From positions 1 to 64,000 of the IMG/VR virus record IMGVR_UViG_3300031952_000010: DNA of 64,000 bases. One strand, written 5' to 3'. The notes under the pieces were generated by a model that saw only the letters and a program-made list of their open reading frames with translations, did not search any database and was not told the DNA's origin. Source of the stretch: a virus. This document shows, in pieces, positions 29,960 through 62,551 of this stretch. Within the stretch, counting starts at the first letter, position 1; each line of letters starts with the position of its first letter. A program made the position numbers and the translations under genes.

Positions 29960-30040
29960 ATGATACGAAACAGAAAAAAACGAAACTATGAAAACATTAT
30001 AATAAACGGTATTACCGTTAACAATCCCATCATTAATTGA
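29960..30040 (+). CDS. Asn-rich leader peptide (26 aa, 7 Asn)
   Basis: MIRNRKKRNYENIIINGITVNNPIIN; overlaps a terminator upstream of the AsnRS-like gene. Confidence 0.65.
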   Translation: MIRNRKKRNYENIIINGITVNNPIIN

Positions 30041-30053
30041 TGGGATTTTTTTT
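30023..30053 (+). terminator. attenuator terminator
   Basis: AATCCCATCA-ttaat-TGATGGGATT + T-run. Confidence 0.8.
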
Positions 30054-54574: not shown

Positions 54575-54605
54575 TTTGACAATTGCAGAATTTTTCATAA
54601 CTTTG
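54575..54605 (+). promoter_or_regulatory. Bacteroidota-type sigma70 promoter for leader 1 / tRNA array 1
   Basis: TTTG-N19-TAACTTTG. Confidence 0.75.
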
Positions 54606-54651
54606 TAATAATTATAGAAACAGGTAGAAATACCACAACAAAAAAAAAACA

Positions 54652-54771
54652 ATGAAAACTAATAAACAACATATGGTCATTAACGTGAAATCGCAATTTA
54701 GTAATTGCTGGTATCCGCGTATTTCGCATACAAGTTCAGTTAGTTTATTAAGTGATATAATTTTTGAATAA
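54652..54771 (+). CDS. leader peptide 1 (39 aa) of tRNA array 1
   Basis: MKTNKQHMVINVKSQFSNCWYPRISHTSSVSLLSDIIFE; A-rich upstream region. Confidence 0.8.
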   Translation: MKTNKQHMVINVKSQFSNCWYPRISHTSSVSLLSDIIFE

Positions 54772-54796
54772 AAGATTAATCACACAAGATAACACG

Positions 54797-54831
54797 AATC
54801 CTGAACTCAAAAAGTTCAGGATTTTTTTTTT
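54797..54831 (+). terminator. attenuator terminator 1
   Basis: AATCCTGAACT-caaaa-AGTTCAGGATT + T-run. Confidence 0.85.
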
Positions 54832-54840
54832 GTTATAAAG

Positions 54841-54853
54841 TGTTCTTTGACAT
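54841..54853 (+). promoter_or_regulatory. boxA-like antitermination element
   Basis: TGTTCTTTGACAT; core repeated at 56810 and 60772. Confidence 0.65.
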
Positions 54854-54869
54854 ATTGGTAAAAAGTAAA

Positions 54870-54941
54870 CGGGGTGTAGTCTCGAGGAGAGACGCGTGTT
54901 TTGGGAACACGAGGCGGCAGGTTCGACTCCTGTCACCCCGA
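54870..54941 (+). tRNA. tRNA-Pro(UGG)
   Basis: CGTGT-ttTGGga-ACACG. Confidence 0.9.
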
Positions 54942-54947
54942 CTACAT

Positions 54948-55021
54948 TGTCACATAGCTCAGTTGGTTAGAGCGTTCGCCTGATACGCGAAAGGTCGATG
55001 GTTCGAGCCCATCTGTGACAA
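54948..55021 (+). tRNA. tRNA-Ile(GAU)
   Basis: TTCGC-ctGATac-GCGAA. Confidence 0.92.
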
Positions 55022-55027
55022 CTTAAT

Positions 55028-55101
55028 GACTTCGTAGCTCAGTTGGCTAGAGCACCTCACTTTTAATGAGGGAGTCCCGAGTTCGAGTCTCGGCGGGGTC
55101 A
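55028..55101 (+). tRNA. tRNA-Lys(UUU)
   Basis: CCTCA-ctTTTaa-TGAGG. Confidence 0.92.
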
Positions 55102-55107
55102 CAATAA

Positions 55108-55179
55108 GGTCGGTTGGCCGAGTGGTTTAGGCGATAGTCTGCAAAACTATCAACACAGGTTCGACTCCTGTACCGACCT
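55108..55179 (+). tRNA. tRNA-Cys(GCA)
   Basis: ATAGT-ctGCAaa-ACTAT. Confidence 0.92.
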
Positions 55180-55184
55180 CAAAT

Positions 55185-55257
55185 ACGTCTGTAGCTCAGT
55201 TGGTAGAGCATTGGTCTCCAAAACCAAGTGTCGGTGGTTCGAATCCATCCAGGCGTG
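55185..55257 (+). tRNA. tRNA-Trp(CCA)
   Basis: TTGGT-ctCCAaa-ACCAA. Confidence 0.92.
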
Positions 55258-55264
55258 CTAAAAT

Positions 55265-55350
55265 TGACGGGTTCGCGTAGTTGGCCGAACGCACCAGACT
55301 GTTAATCTGGCGAGACTTCTCCACCGTGGGTTCGAATCCCACCCCGTCAG
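55265..55350 (+). tRNA. tRNA-Asn(GUU) with long variable arm
   Basis: CCAGA-ctGTTaa-TCTGG; G73. Confidence 0.85.
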
Positions 55351-55399
55351 CAAACATTTACGAACTTTCTAATATTTATTAATATAAAATGTTAATATT

Positions 55400-55957
55400 A
55401 TGGAAAGGTATTCGGAAAAAATAATTACCTTAAGGAAAGAAGGTAAAACCTATAAAGAAATTAAAAACATTATAGGGTGTGCAATGTCAACAATATCGTA
55501 TCATTGTACATTAAATGGTTTAGGGGATAATAACCAAAAGGTAACTGAGAACGAAATCATCGAACTTCAAAAAATGTATGACGAATTTGGTTCACTTAAA
55601 AAAGTTGCTAAAATAACGGGAAGGGCTTTTGATACCGTTCAAAAATATGTTAAGACAAAACAAAAAGTTAAAACTGTAACATCTTCTGAATCAGTTATTT
55701 TATGGAGAAAAAGGACTAAAATTAAATTGATTGAATATAAAGGAGGTAAATGTGAAATTTGTGGATATGATAAATGTAATAGAGCCTTACAATTTCATCA
55801 TAAAAATCCATTAGAAAAGGATTTTTCAATATCGGGTAGAAGTTTATCATTTGACAGATTAAAAGACGAGGTTGATAAATGTATGTTAGTTTGTTCTAAT
55901 TGTCATTGTGAAATACACGATAATTTAATAACGATAAATAGGTTGATTAGGGAATGA
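55400..55957 (+). CDS. HTH + HNH homing endonuclease
   Basis: N-terminal HTH-like segments; CEICGY...LQFHH...CSNCHCEIH. Confidence 0.85.
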   Translation: MERYSEKIITLRKEGKTYKEIKNIIGCAMSTISYHCTLNGLGDNNQKVTENEIIELQKMYDEFGSLKKVAKITGRAFDTVQKYVKTKQKVKTVTSSESVILWRKRTKIKLIEYKGGKCEICGYDKCNRALQFHHKNPLEKDFSISGRSLSFDRLKDEVDKCMLVCSNCHCEIHDNLITINRLIRE

Positions 55958-56077
55958 TTGAACTGATAGTTCGAGAGTGAATACTGACTAGTACAATCGG
56001 AGTTTGCAGGTATTCACCCGAGTAATGCTAATCGTAAAAACAGATGTCCACTGAACCATCTTCTGTTTTCCTAAATT

Positions 56078-56158
56078 GGGAGTATTGAGCAACGGTTGCT
56101 CAGCGGTCTGTAAAACCGTCGCCATTTGGCATTGCAGGTTCGAATCCCGCTACTCCCA
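56078..56158 (+). tRNA. tRNA-Tyr(GUA)
   Basis: GCGGT-ctGTAaa-ACCGT; long variable arm. Confidence 0.9.
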
Positions 56159-56212
56159 CAATAAAAAAAGGGGAATAACTTCCCCTCTTTTCTTTAATTT
56201 GGTTGTTATTAA

Positions 56213-56377
56213 TTATTTTTTTTTAGAAACAATTGACCACACACCACCTGCAAGTGTAACCGCTGCTCCGATAAGTTCTTGTACTGATGAATCAGTTGCA
56301 AGACCTTTCATAATCAGGATACCACCTACGAAAGTAAGTGTGTGTCTAACGATACCTAGGATTTGTTCTTTAGTCAT
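56213..56377 (-). CDS. small two-TM holin-like protein (54 aa)
   Basis: MTKEQILGIVRHTLTFVGGILIMKG...GGVWSIVSKKK, read manually. Confidence 0.7.
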   Translation of the reverse strand: MTKEQILGIVRHTLTFVGGILIMKGLATDSSVQELIGAAVTLAGGVWSIVSKKK

Positions 56378-56433
56378 TTTAATGTTGATTAAAGGTTTAT
56401 GCCAGTCTATAAGTATCGGAGAAATAGGTAAAC

Positions 56434-56504
56434 TGTCCTTTGGTCTAATGGCAGGACACGTGGTTTTGGTCCACGCGGTGGAGGTTCGAATCCTTCAGGG
56501 ACAA
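56434..56504 (+). tRNA. tRNA-Gln(UUG)
   Basis: CGTGG-ttTTGgt-CCACG. Confidence 0.92.
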
Positions 56505-56557
56505 CAAGGGGTTCGGGGGAAACCCAATAGTGGGTGATGAGCCCACATCCTCCAAAT

Positions 56558-56626
56558 ACCGAATGGTCTGGTGACCGAAAATGGCTCATATCCGTTTTTA
56601 GAGTGGTTCGAAACCATTATTCGGTA
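56558..56626 (+). tRNA. atypical tRNA with CAU anticodon (minimal D-arm)
   Basis: ACCGAAT/ATTCGGT acceptor; AATGG-ctCATat-CCGTT. Confidence 0.6.
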
Positions 56627-56634
56627 CTTTAAAC

Positions 56635-56707
56635 AGTTCCTTAGCTCAGTTGGGAGAGCGCTTGTTTTACATGCAAGATGTCGTAGGTTCGAATCCTACA
56701 GGAACTA
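56635..56707 (+). tRNA. tRNA-Val(UAC)
   Basis: CTTGT-ttTACat-GCAAG. Confidence 0.92.
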
Positions 56708-57069
56708 CAAAAAATGTTTGGAGAATTAAATAATTTGCCGTACATTTGTAATATAGAAGTAAGGGGGGTAGGTAGTTAGTGGGTTGGTGACCTACTCCCC
56801 TGACGAAAGAGTTCTTTGAATAAAATGTTGGTGGATGGTAAGAAACGGTAAACTCGTAAAGTGCATTAACCTGTTGATATGAAATGGTGAAACGAGAGTC
56901 CATATCAGCTACTCATCACAATAAAAATATTGATAATGGTTTTCCCCATTCAACGAAGGTCGACTCTTCAGAATGGAATCGGAATTCATCACCCTTTGCT
57001 GAGGCCTCATTAAAACTCAGGAAGCAATTAAGATTGGAGCGAGACGGGTACTCCATCATTATTATACTT

Positions 57070-57142
57070 GGAACGGTAGCTCAGTTGGTAGAGCACTTGA
57101 TTGAAGCTCAAGGTGTCGGCGGTTCGAACCCGTCTCGTTCCA
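57070..57142 (+). tRNA. tRNA-Phe(GAA)
   Basis: CTTGA-ttGAAgc-TCAAG. Confidence 0.92.
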
Positions 57143-57216
57143 CGGAGTCCTGAAATAACAGGATGCCCCCACTCCCATATGGCAGCCAGTCCATTAAGCT
57201 GGTGAAGGGGGTAAAT

Positions 57217-57321
57217 AGTCAAGTGGACGTAATGCGGGATGGTCCCAAGTCCCCAACTCTAACGAGGTAAGGTAGTCTAATCCGTCTTGAACGGTATTCG
57301 GTTCGAGTCCGACCTTGATTA
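57217..57321 (+). ncRNA. tRNA-like RNA with acceptor and T arms but no canonical anticodon arm
   Basis: AGTCAAG/CTTGATT; TTCGG-TTCGAGT-CCGAC. Confidence 0.55.
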
Positions 57322-57326
57322 CAAAT

Positions 57327-57405
57327 TGCGATAATGGTGTAGGGTCGTTCTCATGAGACGATTTGGTAGATATACCCCTGTGAGGTTCGAGTCCTCAAAT
57401 CGCAA
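57327..57405 (+). tRNA. atypical CAU tRNA-like (degenerate D-arm, long variable arm)
   Basis: TCGTT-ctCATga-GACGA; TGAGG-TTCGAGT-CCTCA. Confidence 0.55.
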
Positions 57406-57415
57406 CAAATTATAT

Positions 57416-57489
57416 GGTGACTATAGCTCAGTTGGCAGAGCAAAGGTTTGTGGTACCTTGTGCCATGGGTTCGATTCCCATTAGTCACC
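57416..57489 (+). tRNA. tRNA-His(GUG)
   Basis: AAGGT-ttGTGgt-ACCTT; G-1/C73. Confidence 0.92.
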
Positions 57490-57589
57490 CAAATAGGTTG
57501 GGGTCCCTTGTAGTAACGGATTGAACTATAGTAAGTAAACTACAAGTATCTAGTAAGAAGTCACAGATGGGTTCGTGACGACCTAAATT

Positions 57590-57674
57590 GGAGGAATGGC
57601 AGAGTGGTCTATCGCACTTGTCTTGAAAACAAGCGTACCGAAAGGTACCGTAGGTTCGAATCCTACTTCCTCCG
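57590..57674 (+). tRNA. tRNA-Ser(UGA)
   Basis: CTTGT-ctTGAaa-ACAAG; long variable arm. Confidence 0.93.
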
Positions 57675-57697
57675 CAAAACAATTAGAAAAAAAACAT

Positions 57698-57901
57698 ATG
57701 ACAGACAAGTTAAAAGAGTTGTTAGAGACATCTCAAATTGGGGAACCTGAAATCGTTGATTTAATTCATTCGTATTATAAATTAGTGACCGCTGAATTAT
57801 TCACACAAGAAGAATTTGATACCGTATTAGAAAGATTAGGTATTACACAAAACGGGAACGTTTTTATTTTCAACGAGAACATAACTTATACTTTTAACTA
57901 A
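57698..57901 (+). CDS. hypothetical protein within the tRNA array
   Basis: [13 protein letters not shown]...; 3' part of the tracked ORF. Confidence 0.6.
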
Positions 57902-57904
57902 AAT

Positions 57905-57976
57905 AGTTCCTTGGTGTAATGGATAGCACTAAACACTACGGATGTTTCAGTGAGGGTTCGAGTCCTTCAGGGACTA
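57905..57976 (+). tRNA. tRNA-Arg(ACG)
   Basis: AAACA-ctACGga-TGTTT. Confidence 0.92.
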
Positions 57977-57981
57977 CTATT

Positions 57982-58066
57982 GGAAGATTGGCAGAGTGGT
58001 AATGCGGCGGTTTGCTAAACCGTAGACCTCGAAAGGGGTCCACAGGTTCGAATCCTGTATCTTCCG
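57982..58066 (+). tRNA. tRNA-Ser(GCU)
   Basis: GCGGT-ttGCTaa-ACCGT; long variable arm. Confidence 0.93.
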
Positions 58067-58111
58067 CTTATTTATAATTTTATACTATTTATTATCGAAT
58101 AATATGATATC

Positions 58112-60523: not shown

Positions 60524-60554
60524 TTTGACTTTTTATGAAAGTCGTATATATTTA
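60524..60554 (+). promoter_or_regulatory. promoter candidate for leader 2
   Basis: TTTG-N19-TATATTTA. Confidence 0.55.
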
Positions 60555-60577
60555 ATAGAAAATACATAATACTGCAA

Positions 60578-60649
60578 ATGAAAAATTTAAATATCATACT
60601 ATTAGGCGGGACTGAGGCGGATACGTTAACTCGGACGGCGATGGTATGA
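60578..60649 (+). CDS. leader peptide 2 (23 aa) of tRNA array 2
   Basis: MKNLNIILLGGTEADTLTRTAMV with many G/C-ending codons. Confidence 0.8.
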   Translation: MKNLNIILLGGTEADTLTRTAMV

Positions 60650-60671
60650 TGTTTTGTCAACAATAACAATC

Positions 60672-60703
60672 AGAACCCATCTCCAAAAAAGATGGGTTTT
60701 TTT
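60672..60703 (+). terminator. attenuator terminator 2
   Basis: AACCCATCT-ccaaaaa-AGATGGGTT + T-run. Confidence 0.85.
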
Positions 60704-60756
60704 ATGTCTAAAAGTTGGTAATTAAATAAATTGTTGTATCTTTGTGAAACAATAAA

Positions 60757-60784
60757 GGGGATGAAACCCCGAGTTCTTTGACAT
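60757..60784 (+). promoter_or_regulatory. boxB-like hairpin + boxA-like element
   Basis: GGGG-atgaaa-CCCC then GAGTTCTTTGACAT. Confidence 0.65.
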
Positions 60785-60806
60785 GTTGGTTTGAAAAAAA
60801 AATTAA

Positions 60807-60878
60807 GGTCTATTCGTTCATCGGCTAGGATGCTACCCTGTCACGGTAGTGAGGAGGGTTCGATTCCCTCATGGACCG
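60807..60878 (+). tRNA. tRNA-Asp(GUC)
   Basis: CTACC-ctGTCac-GGTAG. Confidence 0.92.
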
Positions 60879-60889
60879 CAAACAATAAG

Positions 60890-60965
60890 GGGGGTGCATG
60901 TACCAAGGCATTGGCGATGTCGATTTGCAATCAACGTGAGGTGGGTTCGATTCCCATCATCTCCA
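60890..60965 (+). tRNA. tRNA-Ala(UGC)
   Basis: ttTGCaa loop; G3:U70 identity pair; atypical D-arm. Confidence 0.8.
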
Positions 60966-60978
60966 CACAAAAATATAT

Positions 60979-61050
60979 CGTGGGATAGAGCAGTGGTAGC
61001 TCGCAAGGCTCATAACCTTGAGGTCGGGGGTTCGAATCCCTCTCCCGCAA
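60979..61050 (+). tRNA. tRNA-Met(CAU), initiator-like
   Basis: C1xA72 mismatch; CAAGG-ctCATaa-CCTTG. Confidence 0.88.
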
Positions 61051-61059
61051 CTAATACAT

Positions 61060-61133
61060 CGTGGGTTAGACTGGAGGTGGTTCCAGCTTGGTCTCATAAG
61101 CCAAAGACGGGGGTTCGAGTCCCTCACCCGCAA
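61060..61133 (+). tRNA. tRNA-Met(CAU), second copy with C1xA72
   Basis: TTGGT-ctCATaa-GCCAA. Confidence 0.8.
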
Positions 61134-61211
61134 CAAATGTGTCTCAATTCCCTGAAGAAATTCAAAGTTGAGGTCTCGGTAGACAGAACGCGTCTGATTC
61201 TACCCAAATAC

Positions 61212-61284
61212 GCGAATATCGTATAGTGGTTTATTACTCCATCCTTCCAAGTTGGAGACGACAGTTCGATTCTGTCTATTCGCT
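61212..61284 (+). tRNA. tRNA-Gly(UCC)
   Basis: ctTCCaa loop; U73. Confidence 0.9.
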
Positions 61285-61291
61285 CAAAAAT

Positions 61292-61372
61292 GCTTAAGTG
61301 GTGGAATGGTATACACGTATGTCTTAGGAACATATGTCTTATGACGTGAGGGTTCGAGTCCCTCCTTAAGTA
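61292..61372 (+). tRNA. tRNA-Leu(UAG)
   Basis: TATGT-ctTAGga-ACATA. Confidence 0.92.
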
Positions 61373-61377
61373 CAAAA

Positions 61378-61937
61378 CCAAGGTAATGTCAGTAGGATGA
61401 GGCCGCAATCGGATTCCTTTGAACAACGCGTGAGGGGCGGCTTTCACGATGTGGCTGATAACCCGAGGTTTTAAGACCCCACGAGTAACGGAGATATCCG
61501 ACCGTTATGGAGTGTGAACCTGACTTGAAGGCTTCAAGGCTATGGGGGAGGCAACACAAACAAACACGGATTCCCCATTATGGATTAAGGGGGTAAGGGG
61601 CTTTAATTAGTCGTAATACAATCCACAAGTTGTAAGAACACTGAACAATCTTACAATACACACTCTGACTTCCGAGTGAGACTCACCACGTAACTTTGGG
61701 GGTAGGGTGAAGATGTTCTGAGGATAACACTGAACGCTGAACAGTAAAAACCATGACGCATTTGATTGGTAGAATAGGTTAAGACGGAGTGTGAAAGTAG
61801 AAACCCCCGATGGATGGTTACTAAGCTCTTTAACTCAAAAGGGATAGTCGGGAGGGATATATAAGCTTAAGGGAAACTATAAGTAAAAACTAGGTCAGTT
61901 CCGATTTAACCCCTATCGGTACGAGTGTCTGACCTTA
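61378..61937 (+). ncRNA. large structured ncRNA candidate (~560 nt)
   Basis: GC-elevated spacer between tRNAs with no tracked + strand ORF and many stems. Confidence 0.65.
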
Positions 61938-61939
61938 AT

Positions 61940-62012
61940 GCCTCCTTAGCTCAGTTGGCAGAGCACTTGTTTTGTAAACAAGATGTCGTTGGTTCGAATC
62001 CGACAGGAGGCT
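61940..62012 (+). tRNA. tRNA-Thr(UGU)
   Basis: CTTGT-ttTGTaa-ACAAG. Confidence 0.92.
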
Positions 62013-62038
62013 CAATGAGTAAGAGATACTCATCAAAT

Positions 62039-62124
62039 GCTCGGGTGGTGTAATTGGTAGCCACGCAAGACTTAAAATCTTGTGGACTGTAAGGTCCGTG
62101 CGGGTTCGATTCCCGCCCCGAGTA
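62039..62124 (+). tRNA. tRNA-Leu(UAA)
   Basis: CAAGA-ctTAAaa-TCTTG. Confidence 0.93.
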
Positions 62125-62126
62125 CT

Positions 62127-62324
62127 AAAACAAATCTTACATAAGACGGATTAGCACCGTTGAAAGGAACCTTGGCTTCACCGCGGAGTAATTACCGTAA
62201 CAGAAGTTCTAAATGCCCCAAGGTACTATGTAATGGACCCTGCTCTGATGTGCACGTCAACAGGTGATGGGGAACAAACCATCGGTCAAATCTAAACCTA
62301 CGGTGAGCGTAGAAGATTTGTTTT
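62127..62324 (+). ncRNA. structured ncRNA candidate (~200 nt)
   Basis: 12-bp closing stem AAAACAAATCTT/AAGATTTGTTTT with internal stems. Confidence 0.6.
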
Positions 62325-62329
62325 TATTT

Positions 62330-62404
62330 GGTCCCATCGTCTAACGGTTAGGACATCAGGTTTTCATCCTGAAAATCGGGGTTCGATTCCCCGTGGGACT
62401 ACCA
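62330..62404 (+). tRNA. tRNA-Glu(UUC)
   Basis: TCAGG-ttTTCat-CCTGA; encoded CCA. Confidence 0.93.
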
Positions 62405-62425
62405 AATATTCTTCATTTATATAAA

Positions 62426-62499
62426 GGACTTGTAGCTCAGTTGGTTAGAGCACCGCACTCATAATGCGTAGGTCCATGGTTCGAGTCCATGCTGGTCCA
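62426..62499 (+). tRNA. tRNA with CAU anticodon, probably Ile2 (lysidine, reads AUA)
   Basis: GG-start, TAGCTCAGTTGGTTAGAGC D-arm, ctCATaa loop; identity inferred. Confidence 0.75.
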
Positions 62500-62551
62500 C
62501 TTTTTTCAAATTATACATTGCCAGTCCAAATTTTTTTTGTATATTTGTTAT

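Follow-up and report, generated by a model that had tools for sequence, protein, structure and literature searches.

A leader ORF matching the downstream tRNA genes of a phage is a probable ribosome-mediated transcription attenuator

Organization of the tRNA locus

The DNA analysed is a window of 64,000 nt (positions 1 to 64,000 of IMG/VR record IMGVR_UViG_3300031952_000010), part of a virus contig of 91,511 bp with a G+C content of 32%. ARAGORN identifies 27 tRNA genes over the contig: a lone Arg-UCU gene (53199), 16 calls forming array 1 (54870-58067) and 10 calls forming array 2 (60807-62500), both on the plus strand. Array 1, which also hosts an HNH-like ORF and spacers, carries tRNAs for Pro, Ile, Lys, Cys, Trp, Asn, Tyr, Gln, a CAU anticodon, Val, Phe, a questionable second CAU anticodon, His, Ser-UGA, Arg-ACG and Ser-GCU. 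Array 2 carries tRNAs for Asp, Ala, two CAU anticodons, Gly, Leu-UAG, Thr, Leu-UAA, Glu and one further CAU anticodon. Rfam backs 14 of the 16 array 1 calls; three calls made by ARAGORN (56558, 57320 and the Ala call at 60894) lack Rfam support. Although its D arm is reduced, the CAU tRNA at 56558-56627 is conserved in relatives, where compensatory changes are seen, and is the only credible CAU tRNA of array 1. The CAU call at 57320-57406 has three acceptor-stem mismatches and no counterpart in relatives, and is therefore probably false. The only Ala tRNA (60889-60968) is atypical: it is missed by the Rfam tRNA model and weakly matched, at 23 bits, by the tmRNA model. Its acceptor stem can be re-registered as GGGGGUG/CAUCUCC, which yields a G3:U70 pair, and the gene is conserved in relatives with a compensatory change in the T stem.

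Both arrays are preceded by the same series of elements, namely a Bacteroidota-type promoter, a leader ORF, an antiterminator overlapping an intrinsic terminator, and a boxA of the type found in rrn operons. All lie on the plus strand. Ahead of array 1 the promoter (54575-54605), recognized by direct reading and by a pattern scan, consists of TTTG, 19 nt and TAACTTTG, corresponding to the -33 and -7 boxes; the consensus is that of Bacteroides and Flavobacterium promoters. Leader ORF 1 (54652-54771) has 39 codons, from the ATG at 54652 to the TAA at 54769-54771, and is preceded by an A-rich stretch without a Shine-Dalgarno sequence. Homologous leaders are found in 18 viral contigs. Codons 4-26 (54661-54729) form the zone matched to array 1, as defined by composition, codon and rare-codon tests, and a hairpin is predicted within the ORF at 54685-54727. 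The antiterminator 5' arm, AGUUCAG (54733-54739), occupies codons 28-30 and copies the 3' arm of the terminator. An inner hairpin (54752-54783), made of GUGAU..AUCAC and an A/U stem, has the stop codon inside. The intrinsic terminator (54796-54831) features a 12-bp stem with a 5-nt loop (54796-54824), followed by 10 consecutive T; the CUGAACU of its 5' arm (54801-54807) doubles as the 3' arm of the antiterminator. No T run is present when the terminator is read on the minus strand. The boxA-type element GTTCTTTGACATATTGG follows at 54842-54858, and the first tRNA gene begins 11 nt further on. A pattern scan found no Bacteroidota-type promoter between terminator 1 and the first tRNA of array 1.

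The sister unit ahead of array 2 spans 60524-60789. It includes a promoter (60524-60554), a leader ORF of 23 codons (60578-60649), a terminator (60672-60700) and a boxA (60773-60789).

The 5'-UTR of leader 1 includes a small hairpin, GGUA-GAAA-UACC (54623-54634), with a GNRA loop. According to fold prediction and alignment, it is kept, with few exceptions, by the 15 relatives described below, with a loop that is only GAAA, GAGA or GUGA. Leader 2 has none.

The viral DNA occurs in sequencing runs of sediment and freshwater metagenomes. Comparison by blastn of 3.8 kb of the region to a phage isolate collection revealed no close relative, the similarities being confined to tRNA and HNH sequences; with short queries for boxA and the terminator, the same collection gave noise only.

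Codons of leader 1 and tRNAs of array 1

A first-pass annotation, made on the sequence alone, had noted that codons 4-26 of leader 1 lack A, D, E, G, L and T, and the sequence given there proved exact on re-reading. The zone includes only P, I, K, C, W, N, Y, Q, M, V, F, H, S and R, and all 14 are present, each with an ARAGORN tRNA between 54870 and 58067; the match to array 1 proposed in that annotation thus extends to all 14 amino-acid kinds, and to all 15 anticodon kinds. The six absent residues are the kinds served by array 2. The 14 kinds have all been met by codon 23.

The probability of a 23-residue window confined to the array 1 set, previously put near 1e-5, is 1.5e-5 when recomputed from the protein composition of the genome, and 2.9e-4 from base composition alone. 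If all 14 kinds are also required the values drop to 3e-8 and 9e-7, respectively. A six-frame scan of the whole 91.5-kb genome detected 51 runs of at least 18 residues within the array 1 set. Leader 1 alone covers 14 kinds; the runner-up covers 12 kinds in 35 residues.

The correspondence holds at the level of codons. Array 1 anticodons can read 22 of the 23 codons by Watson-Crick or standard wobble pairing, the sole exception being GTC, which would need a U34:C pairing. The isoacceptors fit, as the earlier reading had it: Ser is encoded by both TCG (UGA) and AGT (GCU), and Arg by CGT, read by the ACG tRNA of the array. Arg is not encoded here by the common AGA, whose tRNA is located outside both arrays. 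The matched zone favours rare synonymous codons: GTC, GTG, TCG, TGC and CCG each account for 5-10% of their family. Only 17 of 5000 random synonymous draws were as low as the leader core, and the tail (codons 27-39) features no such bias. The match between codons and tRNAs is an observed property of the locus.

Terminator and antiterminator

The first-pass annotation had placed AGTTCAG at 54733-54739, CTGAACT at 54801-54807, GTGAT at 54752-54756 and ATCAC at 54779-54783, and all these positions are exact. The long hairpin envisaged there, closed by AGUUCAG:CUGAACU around GUGAU/AUCAC, coincides with the minimum-energy fold of 54725-54812 (-17.2 kcal/mol), the RNA as it stands before the 3' arm of the terminator exists. 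The terminator by itself has -15.4 kcal/mol. Once the whole transcript is present, the combination of terminator and inner hairpin (-26.9 kcal/mol) beats the antiterminator. Thermodynamics thus favours termination in the complete RNA, and any control would have to rest on kinetics, as it does in trp; this kinetic coupling is inferred. The two alternative structures are shown by fold prediction, and the leader 1 region is predicted to fold strongly (z = -6.8).

The effect of a translating ribosome was modelled by masking a 30-nt footprint codon by codon along leader 1. The antiterminator stays intact when codons 2-23 are in the A site, in line with the proposal that a ribosome stalled early spares it. 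The companion proposal, that a ribosome finishing the leader melts the hairpin, stands in part: the structure is broken with codons 24-35 in the A site, but only partly at the stop codon. The mean pairing probability of the terminator arm is about 0.62 for codons 2-23, versus about 0.3 for codons 24-35. Leader 1 has no anti-antiterminator (1:2 hairpin), and the antiterminator persists in the model without ribosome. The model therefore predicts read-through in the absence of any ribosome, and termination at leader 1 would thus need active translation. A 1:2 anti-antiterminator or pause hairpin is not universal among known attenuators.

The closing helix of the antiterminator has only 7 bp (-8.5 kcal/mol) and is no better than swapped controls. 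When pairing of the terminator arm upstream was counted against shuffled upstream sequence, the arm paired about as often in the shuffles. This count failed to discriminate because AU-rich shuffles pair too, and a comparison of own and swapped duplexes, described below for the whole family, was used instead. Direct transcript data do not help: contigs from the only RNA run with part of the stretch reach the upstream gene to 54607 and the tRNAs, leaving the leader uncovered, and as contigs they are silent on transcript ends or levels.

Close relatives of leader 1

A search with the terminator sequence retrieved 15 distinct relatives of this leader. Promoter boxes, GNRA hairpin, leader core and AGTTCAG are essentially unchanged in them; the promoter motif TTTG..TAA[C/G]TTTG is kept in those relatives whose sequence extends to it, 13 of the 15. 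AGTTCAG is invariant, though it lies outside the search pattern, and the tail between it and the terminator diverges freely. The leader core is kept at the nucleotide level in the close relatives, so RNA-level constraints also act on it.

Conservation is accompanied by covariation. At the inner hairpin (54752-54783) 13 cells changed on both sides, versus 7.2 +/- 2.1 in shuffled alignments, a value reached by 2 of 500 shuffles. RNAalifold, run on the leader 1 relatives, returned only the invariant 7-bp helix; as this closing helix does not vary, no covariation is available for it within the leader 1 subfamily. In the hairpin at 54685-54727 the inner stem CAAUU..AAUUG is kept, and at the base a G-C pair is exchanged with A-U between this phage and its relatives. 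This hairpin is a possible RNA polymerase pause element, a role that is only inferred.

Some relatives with a near-identical leader 1 have arrays that are ordered differently and start with Ser-Gln-Cys-Val-Tyr. In these the boxA is the variant GTTATTTGAAATATTGG, located further downstream. As nearly the same leader precedes differently ordered arrays, leader and array order evolve separately.

Leader 2, a replicate in the same genome

The residues encoded by codons 8-22 of leader 2 are L L G G T E A D T L T R T A M. The array 2 set accounts for 14 of these 15, and all seven kinds (Leu, Gly, Thr, Glu, Ala, Asp and Met) are present, Leu with both isoacceptors, CUA and UUA. The one mismatch is a CGG codon, which is read by no phage tRNA. 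The probability of such a composition match ranges from 1e-5 to 5e-7. The fraction of residues served by the own array is 0.84 for leader 1 and 0.68 for leader 2, versus 0.18 and 0.36 for the other array. The two leaders divide the amino acids as the two arrays do.

Leader 2 has a 1:2 hairpin of -26.4 kcal/mol and a 2:3 helix GAUGG:CCAUC, with the stop codon within region 2. This is the layout of a textbook four-region attenuator, and in the model termination occurs by default.

The boxA element

The 17-nt element, which resembles the boxA consensus, occurs twice in the contig, the second copy being that at 60773-60789, ahead of array 2. In bacterial genomes exact copies of the 17-mer are found almost only in Bacteroidota (Pedobacter, Mucilaginibacter, Chitinophaga, Bacteroidales). 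Bacterial rrn operons carry boxA between the spacer tRNAs and the 23S rRNA, and in the three Bacteroidota genomes that were checked the 17-mer is located precisely there, in the 16S-23S spacer. The distribution of the 17-mer and the -33/-7 type of the promoter together indicate, on sequence grounds, a host belonging to the Bacteroidota. The presence of the element suggests that RNA polymerase, once past the attenuator, is turned termination-resistant for the long untranslated array; this is inferred, as no Nus-binding data are available. The TTGACA motif inside boxA was considered as a sigma-70 -35 box and discarded, because it has no -10/-7 partner and the element is also found inside rRNA operons. 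Cellulophaga phage phi46:3, which has a weak boxA-like match, was similarly discarded as an example, having no annotated tRNA in its first 50 kb.

Leaders of other viral tRNA arrays

The boxA 17-mer retrieved 116 viral contigs, and in 46 of them it is located at most 120 nt upstream of a tRNA array. In most of these 46 loci the element directly follows a short ORF and its terminator, and in nearly all of them the stop codon precedes the terminator by 20-35 nt. The order promoter, leader, terminator, boxA and tRNAs is constant. Leaders were picked by position only and reduced to 19 non-redundant loci. Arrays were then reassigned among the 19 loci in 20,000 permutations. The fraction of leader residues with a tRNA in the own array is 0.61, versus 0.50 +/- 0.02 in permuted sets; the fraction of array kinds covered by the own leader is 0.96, versus 0.83 +/- 0.03; the Jaccard index of leader and array kinds is 0.54, versus 0.44 +/- 0.02. 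None of the 20,000 permutations reached any of the three observed values.

Individual loci illustrate the trend. An array of Pro, Gln, Tyr, Thr, Gly and Lys tRNAs is preceded by a leader with a 17-residue stretch made only of those six residues (piece TTGTTYQPKQYTQGGKP), and an array of Asp, Glu, Val, Leu and Ala tRNAs by a leader rich in precisely those residues. Where arrays include Glu, Asp or Ala, the leaders contain E, D or A. Leaders without sequence kinship to leader 1 also match their own arrays. For Ser, Leu and Arg, the codon boxes fit the anticodons present in 36 of 58 cases, versus 22.4 expected (z = 4.1), even with arrays truncated.

The structural arrangement is shared as well. 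The pairing partner of the terminator 5' arm is always within or just before the last codons of the ORF. The duplex formed by the end of the leader ORF and the 5' arm of its own terminator has a mean of -11.2 kcal/mol, versus -7.6 kcal/mol when the pairs are swapped, and none of 20,000 permutations reached the observed mean; the leader 1 duplex (-8.5 kcal/mol) is at the weak end of the family range. One test was negative: over the whole family, the density of matching residues is 0.63 in the predicted stall zone and 0.59 in the tail, a difference without significance (p = 0.39).

Proposed mechanism and alternative readings

Leader 1 is best read as a ribosome-mediated, leader-peptide transcription attenuator, matched to the downstream tRNA array 1 and gating it; the probability of this reading is put at roughly 0.7. 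The phage would thus probably make the array 1 tRNAs when ribosomes decode the leader codons slowly. The earlier suggestion that translation of the leader peptide selects between antiterminator and terminator gains computational support from the folds, the footprint model and the relatives.

The steps can be envisaged as follows. Transcription would start at the Bacteroidota-type promoter and a ribosome begin the 39-codon leader, whose translation is itself an inference. Along codons 4-23, or 4-26, the ribosome would meet at least one codon for each downstream tRNA kind, many of them rare and wobble-read. If decoding is slow, the ribosome would stay upstream of 54733, leaving AGUUCAG (54733-54739) free to pair with CUGAACU (54801-54807). 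The inner hairpin around the stop codon would aid this pairing, the terminator would be blocked, and RNA polymerase would continue through boxA into the tRNA genes. If decoding is fast, the ribosome would cover or melt 54733-54783 while the terminator is being made, and transcription would stop at the T run. The predicted outcome is a negative feedback on exactly the supply of the array 1 tRNAs, with induction if the host pool is depleted. Both the direction of control and the response of read-through to charged tRNA are inferred.

The alternative that survives best is a general sensor of translation or starvation, reading elongation rate, ribosome availability or charging, in which the codon match would have little functional meaning. 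The proposed mechanism indeed cannot distinguish a missing from an uncharged tRNA; with 14 kinds sampled, leader 1 comes near to a generic test sequence; and the failure of matching residues to concentrate significantly in the stall zone of the family fits a sensor of this kind. Such a sensor would need, however, neither of two properties that are found: the 20 amino acids are partitioned between the two leaders exactly as they are between the two arrays, and leader content follows array content family-wide, down to codon boxes. We regard it as improbable, without setting it aside.

A functional small protein could also account for part of the data. The conserved peptide of 36-40 residues would matter in itself, the terminator would end its mRNA, and the tRNAs would be transcribed from elsewhere. 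The high conservation of the core peptide, and even of its nucleotide sequence, in the 18 related contigs is what would be expected. Leaders unrelated in sequence match their own arrays likewise, however, and the peptide tail varies freely around a fixed RNA arm, AGTTCAG; nor is there, between the terminator and the first tRNA, a promoter of the Bacteroidota type from which the tRNAs could be made. This explanation seems very unlikely.

Equally hard to sustain is an untranslated RNA switch, T-box-like or binding a protein, a tRNA or a metabolite, in which the reading frame would be incidental. The strong fold (z = -6.8), the conserved GNRA hairpin in the 5'-UTR and the lack of a Shine-Dalgarno sequence would suit it. 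The last point loses weight, as Bacteroidota genes are generally without Shine-Dalgarno sequences. No Rfam family, T-box included, matches at threshold, and the tRNA match is confined to one frame, between an ATG and a stop codon placed inside the switch.

An accidental ORF beside an ordinary terminator that ends upstream transcription can practically be dismissed: AT-rich DNA does give many short ORFs, and the 51 runs of at least 18 residues detected in six frames attest to it, but no other run exceeds 12 kinds, the joint probability of two matched leaders heading two arrays is far below 1e-10, and the design recurs in dozens of contigs.

Relation to known systems

A full-text literature search retrieved papers on attenuators and on phage tRNAs, none of which has a leader peptide or attenuator before tRNA genes. 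Among Rfam leader families the best match to leader 1 is Thr_leader (24.4 bits, 55 being needed), and there is no T-box match.

Leader 1, read as an attenuator, resembles the enterobacterial thr (Thr, Ile), ilvGMEDA (Ile, Leu, Val), trpL, hisL, pheL and leuL leaders. In all a short ORF carries regulatory codons, the 5' arm of the terminator is shared with an antiterminator whose other arm is at the end of the ORF, and stalling leads, or in leader 1 would lead, to read-through; leader 2 has in addition their full four-region layout. Differences are equally clear. The enterobacterial leaders control biosynthetic enzymes, whereas here the targets would be tRNAs, on a phage with a Bacteroidota host; they feature runs of one to three kinds of codons, whereas leader 1 has 14 kinds (15 anticodons), mostly once or twice; and their 1:2 anti-antiterminator is missing from leader 1.

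The pheM leader of the E. coli pheST operon governs an aminoacyl-tRNA synthetase by leader-peptide attenuation, through the decoding of matching codons. As proposed for the phage, attenuation is applied there to a component of the translation apparatus, but pheM senses one amino acid, its target is protein-coding and the system is cellular, whereas leader 1 is viral. T-boxes are similar in that a terminator/antiterminator switch reads the state of a particular tRNA via a codon-like specifier and controls translation-related genes. They differ because they bind the tRNA directly, without a ribosome, and have specifier-loop and T-box motifs; the leader 1 codons lie in a frame inferred to be translated. 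The link to rrn antitermination (boxA, NusB/NusE) lies in the 17-nt element, identical to that of the 16S-23S spacer in many Bacteroidota rRNA operons; in the phage it heads tRNA arrays, after a proposed attenuator.

The mechanism class is a textbook one, which cannot be said of the proposed target, a set of tRNA genes, or of the proposed signal, a list of as many as 15 tRNA species. If the attenuator reading is correct, these would be the first tRNA genes known to be under ribosome-mediated attenuation, and leader 1 by far the most multivalent attenuator known, with 14 amino acids and 15 anticodons. The phage would gauge decoding capacity codon by codon and replenish only the tRNAs in short supply. 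The presence of tRNA genes in phages and the way in which they are regulated are long-standing questions. The simple, modular design (promoter, test ORF, switch, boxA) is widespread in Bacteroidota phages, and might provide a natural means of reporting how available individual tRNAs are.

The biological purpose can only be inferred, and whether it is homeostasis, counter-defence or both is open; the attenuator reading bears both on codon compensation and on the counter-defence role of phage tRNAs. Phage tRNAs that take the place of host tRNAs cleaved by defence nucleases have been described (van den Berg et al., eLife 2023, PMC10264068). That work concerns tRNA sequence features and describes no leader peptide or attenuator, but it supplies a reason for a phage to carry a near-complete set of tRNAs, one that an attenuator sensing depletion would serve. 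The attenuators may be tRNA-loss alarms: a host defence nuclease, or a shut-off induced by the phage, would remove any one of the tRNAs replaceable by an array, the ribosome would stall on its codon in the leader, and the entire array, shielded by a boxA stolen from rrn operons, would be switched on. The phage would then possess an inducible, self-limiting and near-complete decoding kit in two independently sensed halves. This proposal is speculative, and we hold it as a tentative one that may well prove wrong.

Additional features of the arrays and of the genome

Transcription of array 1 may be more complex than that of a single unit. The interval separating tRNA-Val from tRNA-Phe contains a promoter-like site of Bacteroidota type (56717-56748) and a G+C-rich hairpin, followed by a boxA-like sequence, GTTCTTTGAATAAAATGTTGG (56813-56833), and by about 240 nt, up to 57069, without a convincing ORF. 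The region 56717-57069 may allow transcription of the last six tRNAs to start internally, without a leader, or may correspond to a spacer RNA. A terminator-like hairpin (56169-56186) with a T-rich tract is found directly 3' of tRNA-Tyr, in the middle of the array. Given this hairpin and the internal promoter-like site with its hairpin and boxA-like sequence (56717-56833), expression of the last six tRNAs may have other determinants besides leader 1.

At the DNA level, the ORF of 185 residues located in array 1 (55400-55957) resembles HNH endonuclease genes from many large phages that are unrelated, including Lak, Yersinia fHe-Yen9-04 and Bacillus phages. Judging from this similarity, it probably encodes a homing endonuclease that has lodged in the array. 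In array 2 the Rfam freshwater-1 RNA (RF02979) is found between tRNA-Leu and tRNA-Glu, at 62229-62290, with 84 bits versus a threshold of 72.

Far from the arrays, at 29960-30053, an ORF of 26 codons, 7 of which are Asn codons, runs into a strong terminator (CCCATCA..TGATGGG and a T run), and is preceded by a promoter-like site, TTTG..TATATTTA. The region looks like a classical single-residue leader, and suggests that the phage uses attenuation elsewhere too.
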